This document shows positions 33,201 through 39,200 of a DNA stretch of 64,000 bases, piece after piece; position 1 is the first letter of the stretch; the number at the start of each line of letters is the position of its first letter. Made by a program: the position numbers. Location of the stretch: NCBI GenBank assembly GCA_039802605.1, contig JBDRWW010000002.1, positions 32,001 through 96,000 on the forward strand, given 5' to 3'. The DNA comes from a candidate division WOR-3 bacterium (GTDB taxonomy: Bacteria > Hydrothermota > Hydrothermia > LBFQ01).

Positions 33201-36200
33201 CCTTTTCAAAGTTCTCCTATAAGTATAGGGATAAGAGTGCGGTGGCGGATATAGGGGGATATATGAGGTTGTTTAAGTGGGGTGATCACGGTTTGGCGGT
33301 TGGAGGGGATTTTGTGGTTTGGCTGGGTTATGATGTGGGTCTAATCCAGTTGGACCCAATATATGCGGATTATTATGTTTGGTTTGGTGGTTTTAAAGAG
33401 GCAAATAGCGGAACATGGTACTTATTCGTTGAACATCCCTGCTTCCACTACATAGACAGACTTGATACATTACCCCTGTACTGGAATGCTATAAGGTTAA
33501 TGTATAGGGAAAGGGATTTTGAGATTTCCGCTGCCCAGTACATACATAGCGAAAAGTATCAATTCCTTTCAAGGGGGACGGATTGGGGTACGGATTTGAA
33601 GGTTTTTAAAAGGTTAAGGAAAAACCTTGGGAAGGATATTTCAATGTTTTTGGATTGGTATTCGTTTCTGGCTTTGGGTAGAAATTACCGAAGTTTATAC
33701 GCATCCTTGGAAGTAAAGGGGGGATTGGAGTTTATAAATGAAAATGGGGATTTTACCATATCCCTGGGTTTTAGGCCCTATGAAAGGACAGGTATAATAA
33801 GGGATGCCGAGGGTGTCCCTTATATTTCTTTAAAAGTTAGAGGATTTTGACAAGAAATGGATTTCAGCCTTAAAATTCTGGGCGTATGATATATTATATT
33901 TTAAGCGCTTGCGGATGTCCCACATACAATGTCAATTTAAGCAATAGGGTGGGGAGGGATTTACCGTACAACGACCTAAACTATATCTCAACCGAAAGGA
34001 GCATAAAAAATGTCGCATCCTGCAAGGGTAAGGTTCATGTCGCTTGGTTTGCAAGGGATTTTTCGGGGAATACGGCCATACTTTACCGTAGAAGCGCCGA
34101 CGGTGGAATAACTTGGGATCCCGCCGTACAACTAACAATCGGAAACTTGGACCTTGAACTTTGGGTTCAGTGCTATGGGGATACCGTGGTAGTTGCGTAT
34201 GAAAAACTTTTCTCTGACAAGGAAATATATTATAGGTATTCCACAAACGGTGGTGCAACTTGGAGTGCGGAAGCCGTTATGAGAGGGGGTTCTTATAACC
34301 AAGAGGGGCCATCTGTGTGGATAGGTGGGAATAAACTACACTTGGCATGGGCTGATAATACACCACTCCTTCTAACCCCCATATATTATATATTCTACAA
34401 CAATAGCACAAATTTGGGTTTGAGTTGGTCGTCAAATACCAGGTTGGATTTATCAGATTCACCCATAATAGTCGGAGACCCTACAAACCCAAACATATTG
34501 CACATTTGGTTTATGATATTCAATACCCTTGAAAGTAAGGCGAGATATATAAGGAGTGTTGATGGAGGCGCCACTTGGTCTTCAACATTTGACCTTTCAG
34601 GCGGTGTAGATGCCTCCGGAAGCGGATTTTGGAGAAGACCTGTAGGTTCAATTACGGCATACGGCATATATGTACATGCGGTCTTTGTTGATGATAGGTT
34701 TGGGAATAAGGAGGTTTTATATAGAAGATCAACGAATTCCGGCGCCTCTTGGTCGGGTATAATAAGATTGACAAATACACCCGGAACATCTTGGAGCCCA
34801 TTTATATTAACAAATCCTTTGGGGGAGGTTAGGCTTTATTGGGTTGATGATAGCGATGGGGATTACGAGGTTATGTGTAAGATTTCAACGGATAACGGTG
34901 CCAATTGGTCATCCGACGATAGGCTAACAAACAATTCCGCAAGGGATGTAATGGTTAGCCTTGATTACGACCCAACGAATTCAAGATGGCATATTGTATG
35001 GGCTTCAAACGAGACGGGCGATTGGGAGGTATATTACACATCCGACCCATGTCCTATGGGAAACGACGACGAATTGGGTGTTGAAGAAAAGGCGGATAAT
35101 GGGAATTTGAGGATATTAAGGGATGGAATAGTTTTCGATTCCGATGGAGAGGTTAAGGTTTTCGGTTGGTCGGGTAGAACTTACAAAAAGGTTTGGGTTT
35201 ATAAGGGTTATATGTTAAAACTACCCAAGGGGGTTTGGTTTGTGGAGTTTAAGGGGAGGATGTACAAGGTCGTCATAAATTAAGTAAAACGGGGGTATAA
35301 TACCCGTTTATGAAATTAAGAACCGAAGAAGTTGTGTTGAACATGGGTCCTCAGCACCCTTCAACACATGGGGTTTTAAGGTTAATATTGCACCTTGAAG
35401 GTGAGAAAATAATAAAGGTTGAGCCGGTTATAGGCTATCTACATAGGGGGGTAGAAAAGTTATGCGAGTATAGGGGTTATGACAACATAGTTCCCATACT
35501 CGAAAGGAACGACTACTTGGCACCCTCTTTAAACGCCCTTCCATTTGTTTTGGCCGTGGAAAAAGGCGCAAATATAGAGGTTCCGAAAAGGGCACAATAT
35601 TTGAGGGTACTTTTGGCGGAAATTGAAAGGATAACATCGCACCTTGTGGCAATAGGTACATACGGTTTGGATCTGGGTGGCGCTTTTGGAGGTGGTACAA
35701 ACTTGGCAATGTTTTGCTTTAGGGATAGGGAAAAACTCTTGGATTTGAAAGAAATCCTTACGGGTTCAAGGTTTCACCCGAATTTTGTATTCATAGGTGG
35801 CGTTAGGTATGATGTTCCGGCGGGTTTCGATAAAAAGGTTAAAGAAACCGTAAAGTATTTAAGGAAATCCTTTGAGGATTACGAACCATTTTTAACAAAT
35901 CCGGTGTTTAAGGCGAGAACCCAAGGGGTAGGGGTTTTACCAAAGGATTTGGCCCTGAAACTCGGAACATCGGGACCCACTTTAAGGGGAAGCGGCGTCC
36001 CCTATGATATAAGAAAATCCGATGGTTATTCATCCTATAACGACTTTCAATTTAATGTTATAACCCTTGAAAGCGGGGATGCATTCGCGAGGGCAACCGT
36101 CAGGTACTTGGAAATGTTTGAGTCTTTAAAGATTATAGAACAGGTTATAGATGGATTGCCGGAAGGCCCCATAAGCTCCCGTATGCCCGTAAAAACCCCC

Positions 36201-39200
36201 GTTGGTATAAAACTCCCAGCGGATACCTGGGTGTACGCAAAGGTTGAAAGTCCGAGGGGCGAGTTGGGAGCGTTTATTTATTCCGATGGGAAGCCTCAAC
36301 CCGCAAGGGTAAAGCTCCGTTCCCCATCCTTCTCAAACCTTATGGCCATACAACACATATTGCCGGGGCATTACATTGCGGATACAATAGCCGTTTTGGG
36401 TTCCCTTGACCCCGTATTCGGGGATGTGGATAGGTAAAGATGGATAGGGGAACAAGATTAATACTATACTTCGTTTTTGTGTTTGTTTTTTTCTTTGTAT
36501 GGGATTACTTTGTTTTGAGACCTAAAAGGGAGGCCCTTTTAAAGGAAAGCGAAAAAACCGAAAAGGTTGAAAAAAGACATGAATCCACTCCCAAAATAGC
36601 ACACTTAAAGTTCAACGGATACGAATATTTAATAGATTCAAACACGGGGGCCATTTTCGGATTAAGGGATGAAAAACACAAGGCTAAAATCTCCGGATAC
36701 ATAGTTAAGCCCCTACGCGTTGATTCCCAAGGGGTTGAGGTTGTCAAAAACGGAGTTATAACGGATAGGTTCGAGATAGCACACCTGGGAAATTTTAGGC
36801 TAAAAGTGGTTTTAAAGGAGGAAATACCCTTTGAAATAACCACACCCCTAACGGAATACAATGGTTATAGGGGTGAAAGGAAACAACTTTTTATACAATA
36901 TTTGAACGGAAAAACTAAGAAATACGATTATAAAAATGCGAATATGGACTTCTATACGGATACCGTGAAATGGATGGGTTTGAGGTCAAGGTATTATTTG
37001 GCATCGGTATGGGATTTTAAGGGTTTTGCATCCTCTTTTAAGGATGGCGATAGGATAACCATAAGGTTGTATCCGAAAGGGGATAAGGAGTTTTACATAT
37101 TTCTTGGACCCGCGGAGAGGAATTTGCTTTCCGGAGAACCCGATATGAGGGCGGCTTTTGACCTCGGGGGTGGGTGGTCCACATTTATCGCATGGCCCAT
37201 ATACTGGGCTTTAATATGGTTTGAGGGTTTAACAAAAAATTACGGGCTTGCCATAATCCTTTTGGCAATACTTATAAAAATCCTAACATCACCCCTATCA
37301 ATAAATATTTACAAATCCTCTCAGAAAATGCAGAAGTTAAAACCAAAACTTGAAAAAATACAAAAACTCTATAAGGATGACCCAGAAAGGTTGCAATGGG
37401 AAACCATGAAACTTTACAGGGAAGCCGGCTTTAATCCCCTGAGCGGATGCTTGCCCCTACTCTTGCAACTTCCCATATTCTTTGCTTTATATCAGGTTTT
37501 GCAGAACGCAATAGAGTTAAAGGGGGCGGAGTTTCTATTATGGATAAAGGATTTAAGCCATAAGGACCCGTACTATGTTCTCCCGATAGTGATGGGGGGT
37601 ATAAGCCTATTGAACGCTTACCTTCAACCCGGTTTGGATCCGCAGGCGAAAAGGACATCAATGATTATGTCCGCCTTATTCGTGTTTATTTTCCTAAGTT
37701 TTCCCGCGGGTATAGTTCTGTATTGGTTAATATACTCCCTTTTGGGCATCGTTGAGCAGAGAATATACAAAGCATTATGGAAACTATAATCCTAAGGATA
37801 ATAATCAGTCCCTTTTTGATATTATCCTTAACATTTCACGAGTTTGCCCACGCTTGGAGTGCTTACAAACTTGGAGACCCAACCGCAAAGTATGAAGGTA
37901 GGTTATCGTTAAACCCTTTGGTGCATTTGGATTTGATAGGCCTCTTAATGGTTATCCTTGTGGGGTTTGGTTGGGCAAAACCCGTACCCGTCAACCCCTA
38001 CAACTTTAAAAATCCCCCATTGCATACATCCATAGTGGCATTCGCGGGTCCCCTTTCCAACATAATTTTAGCCTTAGTAGGTGTTATAGTTTCAAAGTTT
38101 ATAAACCCCGTAGGAATTGATACATTCGTGTGGATAAACATATATTTGGCGGTTTTTAACCTTATACCCCTTCCACCATTGGACGGTTGGAGAATCCTTC
38201 AAGGCTTATATCCGAGGTTTTACGGCGATTATTCCCTTGAAGTAAAACTTTCCTATGTATTACTCGGCATAATCTTTGTTTCCATACTAACCCCAATTGA
38301 TATAATAGGGTGGTTCCTCTATCCAATTTCATCGTTTATATACCTCCTGTTGCACTCGTTGGTATGAGGTTAAAATCGGTTTTGTCCTTTTTTGTGGGAA
38401 CATTAATAAGTAGAATCTTGGGTTTTTTCCGGGAAATGGTTTTTGCCTATGCCCTCGGTTCAACATACTACGCGGATGCGGTTGTTGTGGCGATAAGGAT
38501 ACCCACGATGTTGAGGGGGATCCTCGCGGAAGGTATTTCGCAAAACGCCTTCATACCGGTTTTTACAAGGTGGAAAGATGGAAGGCTTTTATGGGCGTTA
38601 ATATTTATAGTTTTAATCGCAACAACAATTGCGGTTTTGTTGGGTATCCTGCTTTCCCCTTACATATTAAAAATAATGGTTCCCGGTTTCGTTGAGGACC
38701 AGGAAAAGTTTTCGTTTACATTATGGGCAACGGTTATAACATTCCCCTCTTTATTCTTTATAAGCGCAGCATCCATAGAAATGGGGGTTTTAAACTCAAA
38801 GGGTAAATTTTTCTTATCATCTATATCACCGGTATTCTTCAACCTGGGAATGATAATTTTCCTCCCCTTCGCAAAAAACTATCCCATACTCGGGGCGTTT
38901 TCGTTTTTATTCGGTTGTTTTTTACAATTTCTGTTTTTATTGTTTTTTATAGGGGAAAGGTATCAAAAACCCGATTTCAAACACCCCGCCATTTCGGATT
39001 TTTTAAAAAACTGGCTATCCTTGGGTTTAAACAGCGGATTTTTACAATTGGCGACATTTGTTAATACATTTATGGCATCCTTCTTACCCACGGGTTCGCT
39101 GGCTTATCTAAATTATGCTTTTAGGTTGGTTCAATTACCCCAAGGGTTGGTGGGGGTATCCTTTGGAACGGTTTTATCAAAGGAAACATCGGAGAAGGAA

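Follow-up and report, generated by a model that had tools for sequence, protein, structure and literature searches.

The cyanobacterial NDH-1L and NDH-1MS complexes, which are fed by ferredoxin, are built from a common part and alternative modules. The complex I isoforms of the thermophile Aquifex aeolicus are encoded by scattered nuo genes with duplicated subunits; the membrane subunits are doubled too, and both isoforms use NADH. Structural work has proposed the redox module and the pump of complex I as independent building blocks, with BCDI+H as a conserved module and transmembrane helices 2-3 of NuoA holding the interface between module and pump (PMC8165549, available part), and NuoA, J, K and part of H have been described as the E-channel that supplies the substrate protons (PMC10212512, accessible text). 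For 11-subunit enzymes, ferredoxin derived from 2-oxoacid:ferredoxin oxidoreductase (OFOR) has been proposed as the donor (PMC3144371; PMC11238625; available parts of both). According to the accessible portion of a phylogenomic survey, complex I subunits are lost or moved jointly, and both hybrids and subunit recombination between clades are rare (PMC4453560). Within a literature search that had subscription papers mostly outside it, we found no description of two NuoABCDHI sets with one NuoJKLMN, and two WOR-3 papers, in their available text, merely list nuo genes (PMC12542636, PMC4791363).

We analysed a 64,000-nucleotide stretch of DNA from a WOR-3 bacterium (the window) that encodes NuoD2, a second copy of NuoD. 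Its features are the following.

35310..36437, forward strand: nuoD2, predicted quinone-binding subunit of a second (11-subunit-type) head; intact, 375 aa
35290..35309, forward strand: leaderless promoter of nuoD2, with C at 35290, TATAAT at 35296-35301 and 8 nt to the ATG
35355..35369, forward strand: NuoD2 His16 and His20 in the beta1-beta2 loop, equal to Thermus Nqo4 His34 and His38 by alignment offset
35505..35516, forward strand: NuoD2 Arg66 and Tyr69, equal to Thermus Nqo4 Arg84 and Tyr87
35670..35696, forward strand: NuoD2 Asp121 (Thermus Asp139), then a 5-residue Gly-rich insert
36162..36224, forward strand: short 21-aa segment of NuoD2 (42 aa in NuoD1)

NuoD2 keeps the quinone-site His, Tyr and Asp and lacks the NiFe cysteine pairs in an alignment view (4 set-2 rows of 12 displayed), and the Gly-rich insert after Asp121 is common to 11-subunit operons of the class. 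We found that the NuoD segment is long in all 27 loci with E/F/G and short in all 9 without, making the short form that of EFG-less operons. Since NuoD2 carries this form, typical of complexes without NuoEFG, its sequence gives good support to a donor other than NADH for the second head. The nuoD2 promoter belongs to the general leaderless type of the genome, and a separate promoter motif precedes each of B2, C2, D2, H2 and I2. An operator common to D2, J, M and N was considered and rejected, as the motif there is this same general promoter.

Whole-genome family searches of the source genome, G000 (1.65 Mb, 90% complete, 0.01% contamination), identified two copies each of NuoA, B, C, D, H and I, one each of NuoJ, K, E, F and G, and three antiporter-like subunits (L, M and N), bearing out the gene counts of the earlier note. 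We refer to the doubled subunits as set 1 (14-subunit type) and set 2 (11-subunit type). A third, weak NuoI match is an 86-aa ferredoxin. A six-frame search of G000 with custom HMMs made from the 11-subunit JKLMN of relatives yielded no second J, K, L, M or N, and no other K-like or antiporter-like gene was found there beyond the single K and L, M and N. The paralogue pairs, previously given as intact and 30-61% identical, show 31-66% identity in local alignments, consistent with that claim. The set-2 genes are scattered, with nuoD2 in the window and its partners elsewhere in G000; these and the genes of the single arm lie at the following contig positions.

C5:53312-53683, reverse strand: A2
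C2:178800-179345, reverse strand: B2
C8:65356-65736, forward strand: C2
C4:96480-97442, reverse strand: H2
C1:281491-281997, forward strand: I2
C9:42207-43003, reverse strand: J and K (single arm)
C1:293933-295882, reverse strand: L (single arm)
C2:128111-129571, forward strand: M (single arm)
C1:109080-110486, forward strand: N (single arm)

Set 1 in G000 fits a 14-subunit complex I, with all 14 subunits, a canonical NuoF nucleotide site and the long NuoD segment. Set 2 has no cognate NuoEFG: G000 encodes a single EFG, and the 11-subunit operon of relatives is also without it.

We compared 12 order genomes of g1 and f2 (three genera) with 7 of the sister genus g2, all of them MAGs that are 57-96% complete. 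Every one of the 12 has two A, two D, one J and one K, as well as two H (two of these being contig-end fragments) and two I (one fragment); B is doubled in 11, the twelfth carrying a contig-end B1 fragment, and C in 10. Three antiporter subunits are present in 11 of the 12, the exception being G034 (57% complete), with L plus fragments. Two nuoH with one nuoK had been counted in 9 of 18 order genomes, and three antiporter subunits in 10 of 11; both patterns hold, and our order count is higher. In g2, every subunit is single and of set 1 in 6 of 7 genomes, and set 2 is wholly missing from these, which agrees with the reported loss of the extra H from 6 of 7 genomes of this second genus. The exception, G039 (7% contamination), has an additional unrelated operon, and four second B matches in g2 are hydrogenase small subunits (three inspected). 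NuoF is found as one copy in 4 of the 5 other genomes counted; NuoE and NuoG were counted in G000 only. Among outgroup families that have both complexes, 17 of 18 genomes retain 5-9 antiporter subunits.

Phylogenetic trees place set 2 with the 11-subunit operons in a split that excludes set 1 (FastTree support 0.93 for A, 0.94 for B, 0.99 for C and 0.996 for I; SH-aLRT 97 for NuoD), and H2 and the operon H form one clade with a support of only 0.46. No sequence from the order falls within the clades of the operon J, K, L, M and N (supports 0.94, 0.79, 0.997, 0.99 and 1.0, respectively). The NuoD tree is a quick tree; the A, J and K topologies agree with FastTree, and supports were recomputed since re-rooting can shift printed values. 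Proteins under length cut-offs, hydrogenase large subunits and weak D matches were omitted from the trees, and the extra operon of G039, the mis-called D1 of G034 and the divergent L317 copies of G014 from the residue and identity counts. Of 80 diagnostic columns that distinguish set 1 from the operon, B2, C2, D2, H2 and I2 side with the operon in 64 and with set 1 in 8. The J, K, L, M and N of G000 had been reported to be closer to the other complex of the relative G059, and our values run in the same direction, with 40/46/54/52/37% identity to its 14-subunit-type copies versus 30/39/49/39/33% to its 11-subunit copies. The A-B-C-D-H-I-J-K-L-M-N operon without EFG that had been described in G059 has this gene content but lies on two contig ends (A-B-C-D-H' and 'H-I-J-K-L-M-N); it is in one piece in G060 and G062. 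The Mbx-like operons of the class form a separate clade. Trees and gene order support set 2 as the remnant of an 11-subunit operon that lost its JKLMN, as had been proposed, and by sequence the only JKLMN arm descends from the 14-subunit paralogue. Two full complexes would have existed in the order ancestor: a 14-subunit NADH:quinone oxidoreductase and an 11-subunit complex lacking NuoEFG. The JKLMN genes of the latter would then have disappeared, while its redox module and anchor (B, C, D, I and H) were retained together with the adaptor NuoA.

Set 2 is under purifying selection, judging by a dN/dS of at most 0.13 (0.00-0.13 in 5 genome pairs), similar to set 1; a NuoN value of 0.63 (G034-G036) was discounted, with the N of G034 in an abnormal 587-aa frame. 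In E. coli numbers, A2 keeps K46, E51, D79 and E81 in 12 of 12 sequences and H2 keeps E71, K140, Y156, E157, E216, E218, E220, E228 and E241 in 11 of 11. The four N2 cysteines of B2 are kept in 12 of 12, and both 4Fe-4S motifs are intact in all 11 full-length I2. Across the order, set 2 is more diverged than set 1 by 7-14 identity points. The TM3 Glu (E. coli E102) is lost from the A2 of g1 (5/5) and W88 from that of f2 (7/7).

G000 encodes IDH, KorAB, one ferredoxin and aa3- and ba3-like oxidases, and a genome search gave no match for SucA, Fpr, Rnf, a NiFe large subunit or a GltD/NfnB-like protein. IDH and KorAB without SucA imply that a ferredoxin sink is needed. A motif scan of G000 found one free ferredoxin and no flavodoxin-like match. 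The inter-cluster loop of I2 has a net charge of 0 to +3 with a Lys cluster, compared with -1 to -3 in I1, and the ferredoxin has -9. The 11-subunit operon had been placed a few genes from an OFOR, which we observe in f12; we saw none next to it in f6, f7 or f9. Of 64 class genomes, 21 have Rnf, none of them in a family with this 11-subunit type, and f5 has neither. OFOR is kept in all 7 g2 genomes, which as grouped here are without set 2 and Rnf. With OFOR in g2, and Rnf and the 11-subunit type both absent from f5, co-occurrence with a ferredoxin source is not strict. Joint loss of OFOR and set 2 was rejected because g2 retains OFOR, and Rnf in place of set 2 in g2 because Rnf is absent there. 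The NuoF of g2 has a remodelled nucleotide site and its NuoI a basic tail. Given a shared arm, ferredoxin is probably the donor. Of the head that had been called possibly ferredoxin-fed, the non-NADH part stands on the short NuoD2 segment, and ferredoxin is the best guess, although OFOR persists in g2 without set 2.

The earlier note had the second set dock as an alternative head on the one arm. Docking there is favoured by the E-channel residues kept, purifying selection, the lack of another K-like or antiporter-like gene and a passing but memory-prone model, and we think it likely that A2B2C2D2H2I2 assembles on the shared JKLMN arm. An ESMFold2 model of J+K+N+A2 scored 0.65 versus 0.44 for the best control, a mark that 116 of 157 solved and 2 of 215 mismatched pairs reached (rough for this model); the NuoA-arm pair is a textbook one, and its pass may reflect memorisation by the predictor. 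Runs shared at least 74% of their contacts, with a partner pLDDT of 61-62. The strongest competing reading is a ferredoxin:quinone oxidoreductase that works by itself without pumping, as an overflow valve with H2 and A2 for its only anchors. The kept genes include the whole membrane-anchored redox module (PMC8165549, available part), and between-lineage conservation at 41 arm-facing NuoA positions is 42% for A2 versus 57% for A1 and 53% for operon-borne NuoA, and resemblance to A1 at these positions is no greater for A2 (45%) than for operon-borne NuoA (49%). The conserved TM residues gone from A2 point the same way, as does the lack of convergence of H2 on H1 in a sequence column comparison across the order. 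However, the buried D79/E81 of A2 and Y156/E157 of H2, facing J/K, are invariant despite only 39% identity between the A2 of g1 and f2, conservation at the 9 tightest contacts of the model is higher for A2 (69%) than for A1 (57%), and an E-channel feeding quinone protonation requires J and K (PMC10212512, accessible text); we regard a pump-less enzyme as unlikely. A1 and A2 have common lineage-specific states in 2 of 4 interface columns versus 0 of 22 elsewhere, with 3 of the 22 anti-parallel, a weak post hoc signal of conservative swaps. Of seven listed RNA runs, four were compared with a 9.5-kb G000 stretch that includes both nuoA genes. The raw reads of three match almost only a tRNA and come from foreign organisms; the fourth (word share 0.14) gave short contigs that match several genes exactly, among them a 208-nt contig that overlaps A2, whereas A1 is not covered. 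As DNA carry-over is possible, we do not count this as support.

The scattering of the genes, together with the head-to-head placement with A1-B1 of H2 (G032, G033) and C2 (G029, G031), would suit mosaic isoforms, in which set-2 subunits, one or a few at a time, replace their counterparts in one complex I (H2/A2 alongside B1/D1 and EFG, for instance) and tune quinone use, with no separate second head. This is improbable, as all six genes are retained jointly in 12 genomes and missing jointly in 6, the diagnostic columns side with the operon, and D2 has the short segment of EFG-less enzymes. The complex on a shared arm could also take its electrons from an enzyme or a flavodoxin-like protein, or could run backwards, with protons driving electrons from quinol to ferredoxin for biosynthesis: the donor is deduced only, OFOR persists in g2, and the partners of an 11-subunit enzyme were left open in the available text of PMC11238625. 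The single free ferredoxin, the missing flavodoxin-like match and the sink needed by IDH and KorAB speak against this reading, which we hold to be quite improbable. Reverse flow is in addition energetically marginal. Finally, a second JKLMN might be missing from the assemblies or too diverged to detect, or set 2 might be a decaying relic, since the MAGs are incomplete and our counts overlooked one NuoF copy and two NuoC copies in individual genomes. We give this hardly any credence: the absence would be needed in 12 of 12 genomes (product of missing fractions 2e-13 if gaps are independent, systematic mis-binning lying outside this figure), the operon-specific HMMs match nothing in G000, and the dN/dS argues against a relic.

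With the second head docked on the shared arm, as we prefer, EFG + A1B1C1D1H1I1 + JKLMN would oxidise NADH, and A2B2C2D2H2I2 + JKLMN would oxidise a low-potential carrier, most likely ferredoxin reduced by KorAB in the TCA cycle. Electrons would travel from NuoI2 via cluster N2 and reduce quinone, the A2/H2/J/K E-channel would link this step to pumping, and an arm would carry one head at a time. A hybrid complex I with a shared arm and a non-NADH donor is on balance probable; with ferredoxin named as the donor, the chances are about even. Slightly below even we place a natural switchable complex I, whose heads diverged before the class radiation and alternate on one arm (NADH, ferredoxin), with the A+H/J+K boundary a real exchange seam and the first head of g2 retooled (NuoF site, NuoI tail) to take over. 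The order, of hot-spring bacteria, appears to retain a stable hybrid across two families. If true, this hybrid would locate the module seam and the few A/H-to-J/K contacts sufficient for coupling quinone chemistry to pumping, long debated, and would account for energy conservation from ferredoxin in an aerobic heterotroph that has a 1.65-Mb genome and no Rnf; NADH and ferredoxin input could also be compared with matched heads on the same arm. Were the pump-less rival true, a six-subunit complex I fragment working alone would be new in itself.

Two heads on one arm would be the inverse of cyanobacterial NDH-1L/NDH-1MS, in which one core takes alternative distal NdhD/NdhF modules. Aquifex aeolicus has doubled membrane subunits and two NADH-fed isoforms, whereas the arm subunits here are single. 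For this comparison, PDB 7q5y lists 'subunit C/D 2'. Two-isozyme genomes (Spero et al. 2015, PMC4453560, accessible portion) likewise have two divergent sets, one strain having one nuoEFG and the rest doubled; their membrane arms are doubled too, whereas here six subunits are doubled and five arm subunits single. Set 2 resembles the 11-subunit enzymes without NuoEFG (PMC3144371; Desulfitobacterium, PMC11238625; available parts) in having ABCDHI without an N-module and a NuoD without NiFe cysteines. Those enzymes encode their own JKLMN; set 2 appears to have lost them, the sole arm here coming from the 14-subunit paralogue. We rejected an MBS/MBH/Ehr identity of set 2, which has no catalytic cysteines and no Mrp-like arm and lies apart from the Mbx-like clade; no Mrp-type sodium module and no extra antiporter or K-like gene were seen in the order genomes. 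NuoD2 differs from MBH/MBS in lacking NiFe or MBS cysteine motifs at either terminus and in keeping the quinone-site residues. The MBH and MBS (Mbx) complexes of Pyrococcus are fed by ferredoxin and, in the available part of PMC8165549, their BCDI+H unit docks on different ion-translocating arms, as we propose here for the second head.

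The gene under study lies in a neighbourhood without other nuo genes, in a window that corresponds to G000:C2:32001-96000.

35310-36437, + strand: nuoD2, a 375-aa NuoD (named by NCBIfam; best solved relative, Thermus Nqo4)

A YidC-like gene (recognised by eye) at 36440-37789 starts 2 nt past the nuoD2 stop, and the pair is conserved in all five genomes of this genus (g1). In the source genome, G000, we observe two copies each of NuoA, B, C, D, H and I and one each of the arm subunits NuoJ, K, L, M and N and of NuoE, F and G (EFG), the same counts that an earlier note had given. 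These genes are dispersed, J-K being the sole adjacent pair. The paralogues fall into two sets, one of the 14-subunit NADH complex I (set 1) and one of 11-subunit type (set 2), and are 31-66% identical. A six-frame search of G000 with profiles from the relatives' 11-subunit JKLMN found no second J, K, L, M or N.

The order comprises 19 genomes in four genera: g1 (five, including G000), g2 (seven), g3 (five) and g4 (two). All 12 genomes of g1, g3 and g4 have two A, D, H and I with a single J and a single K; 11 have two B and 10 have two C, and three antiporter-like subunits (L, M, N) are found in 11. The exceptions are one contig-end fragment, two single absent NuoC copies and one 57%-complete genome. 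Were gaps independent, one extra locus would go unseen in all 12 with a probability of 2e-13. NuoF has one copy in four of five further genomes tested and no match in the fifth. The second genus, g2, was earlier said to have lost the extra H (6 of 7), and indeed every subunit is single in six of its seven genomes. The remaining genome, G039, with 7% contamination, carries an additional operon outside both sets. This operon (L278, contig C15; B-C-D-H-I-J-K-L-M) has long branches, is unrelated to either set, and represents contamination or transfer.

Across five genome pairs, set 2 has a dN/dS of 0.00-0.13, matching set 1. It retains the ligands of N2, the two NuoI clusters and the quinone-site His/His/Arg/Tyr/Asp. 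The lineage's leaderless promoter precedes each of B2, C2, D2, H2 and I2, and nuoA2 begins, with a TTG start, directly behind tRNA-Asn (L396:2186-2259). Judged from sequence, the 2:1 pattern is real, derived, order-wide and under selection. nuoH1 (G000:C3:88066) also has a TTG start and begins behind a tRNA-like 3′ end.

The best set-2 matches in four other families of the class (f6, f7, f9, f12) lie inside an A-B-C-D-H-I-J-K-L(-M-N) operon without EFG, which is complete in G062, runs to the contig end in G060 and G045, and breaks off behind L in f6 and f7. Two arms are retained in these families, where 17 of 18 genomes have 5-9 antiporter subunits. Set 2 and this operon form a group that leaves out set 1, with an SH-aLRT of 97 for D in a quick tree and FastTree supports of 0.93 (A), 0.94 (B), 0.99 (C) and 0.996 (I), though only 0.46 for H. 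The operon J, K, L, M and N clades contain no sequence of the order (support 0.94, 0.79, 0.997, 0.99 and 1.0), and the single arm of g4 still lies within the set-1 operon H1-I1-J-K-L-M-N. From these trees and the g4 gene order we conclude that exactly JKLMN of the 11-subunit complex disappeared in the order's ancestor, the six remaining genes being lost later in g2. The trees and operon gene order thus support the earlier proposal that set 2 comes from an 11-subunit operon that lost its own JKLMN.

A set-2 gene stands head-to-head with nuoA1-nuoB1 in g4 (H2; L286 in G032, L137 in G033) and in two g3 genomes (C2; L159 in G029, L163 in G031), perhaps a relic of a divergent locus that held both operons in an ancestor. 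Elsewhere in the class, f6 and f7 (L301, L303, L304, L369-L373, L382-L385) have both complexes broken after nuoL and two separate nuoM-nuoN pairs elsewhere. The last gene of the Mbx/MBS-like operons in several families (L296, L308, L320-L323) encodes a NuoI-like protein of ~590 aa that seems to carry a further, fused domain. Family f5 (L307, L312, L391) has a third complex without EFG, in which H (399 aa), I (347-368 aa) and L (704 aa) are enlarged.

The E-channel, formed by A, J, K and part of H, replenishes the quinone's protons (PMC10212512, available excerpt). D79 and E81 are retained in A2 (12/12), as are Y156, E157 and the TM5-6 acids in H2 (11/11); A2 of g1 and of f2 (g3 plus g4) share only 39% identity despite the invariant D79/E81. 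Family searches of the order, and operon-derived profiles in G000, found no other K-like or antiporter-like gene as a set-2 partner. A structure model of J+K+N+A2 scored 0.65 against 0.44 for the best control, with contact agreement of at least 74% and partner pLDDT of 61-62; the pass mark, which 116 of 157 solved pairs and 2 of 215 mismatched ones reached, is roughly applicable to this assembly. Since A/J/K/N is a textbook interface, the modelled pass shows likeness to that interface, not proof that the A2 copy binds. A1 and A2 share lineage-specific letters at two modelled contacts (2 of 4 interface columns versus 0 of 22 elsewhere), a weak, post hoc signal. Counting against a shared arm, conservation at 41 arm-facing positions is lower in A2 (42%) than in operon-borne A (53%) or A1 (57%), A2 has lost a TM3 glutamate in g1 and a TM2 tryptophan in f2, and no convergence of H2 on H1 was seen. 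These features could mean that set 2 has adapted to a foreign arm or that the constraint on it is relaxed. We consider it likely that set 2 uses the shared arm, whichever donor feeds it, and unlikely that it is a pump-less six-subunit enzyme, the main rival.

A variable-length NuoD segment, which we take to contact NuoG, spans 42-58 aa in 27/27 loci of other phyla with E/F/G and 14-20 aa in 9/9 without, many of these 36 loci being from related Actinobacteria; it is 42 aa in D1 and 21 aa in D2. NuoEFG probably does not feed set 2. The inter-cluster NuoI loop has a net charge of -1 to -3 in I1; in I2 it contains a group of lysines and its net charge is 0 to +3. The single free ferredoxin of G000 carries -9. 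The genome encodes IDH, KorAB (its 2-oxoacid:ferredoxin oxidoreductase, OFOR), SDH, a Rieske protein and two heme-copper oxidases; single-query or motif searches of this 90%-complete genome gave no match to SucA, Fpr, Rnf, NiFe large subunit or a GltD/NfnB-like protein. Because KorAB is present and these are unmatched, every TCA turn would reduce ferredoxin for which G000 shows no other sink. The IDH gene lies at G000:C2:182300-183493 (464 bits to E. coli Icd); IDH is reported missing from Ca. Caldipriscus assemblies in the available parts of PMC4791363 and PMC12542636. Ca. Caldipriscus, a WOR-3 lineage (PMC12542636), is also the name given to the nearest named relatives, which are 92-93% identical. 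OFOR is directly 3′ of the operon in G061-G063 and three genes on in G059-G060, and was not seen beside it in f6, f7 or f9. Of 64 class genomes, 21 have Rnf, and these belong to five families without the 11-subunit operon type. PFOR-ferredoxin input has been proposed for an 11-subunit enzyme (PMC11238625, in excerpt). As counter-evidence to a ferredoxin donor, g2 retains OFOR though it has neither set 2 nor Rnf. Our best reading, which we moderately favour, is that a head without EFG, probably fed by ferredoxin, uses the arm of the NADH enzyme and so makes a hybrid complex I.

The genus without set 2 has a remodelled nucleotide site in NuoF. NuoF of G044 (L335:64-1320) and of its relatives L456 and L457 (84-89% identity, probably the same genus) carries identical changes, E. 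coli C180/E182/E183/T184 to A/Y/A/V and F203 to R. The equivalents of E182, E183 and F203 are canonical in G000, G035, G027 and G032; of 60 other loci, 57 have the canonical residues as well and three are unmatched. NuoI of g2 has a basic, Lys-rich tail (net +7 to +15 versus -8 to +3) and a shortened inter-cluster loop. The remodelling may mark a change of donor, to NADPH or ferredoxin, and one reading would make it compensation for the lost set 2. A NuoB-family search found periplasmic-type NiFe hydrogenase genes in four of seven g2 genomes (three inspected; L185, L187, L189) and none in g1 or f2.

The cyanobacterial complex has one core with alternative distal modules, the inverse of two heads on one arm here. 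Set 2 would work like the ferredoxin-fed 11-subunit complex I; however, that complex has its own JKLMN, which set 2 lacks. The available portions of the literature gave no account of the 2:1 arrangement, and those of the WOR-3 papers (PMC4791363, PMC12542636) merely report nuo genes. In genomes with two isozymes (PMC4453560, available excerpt) the arms are doubled, whereas here the arm is single.
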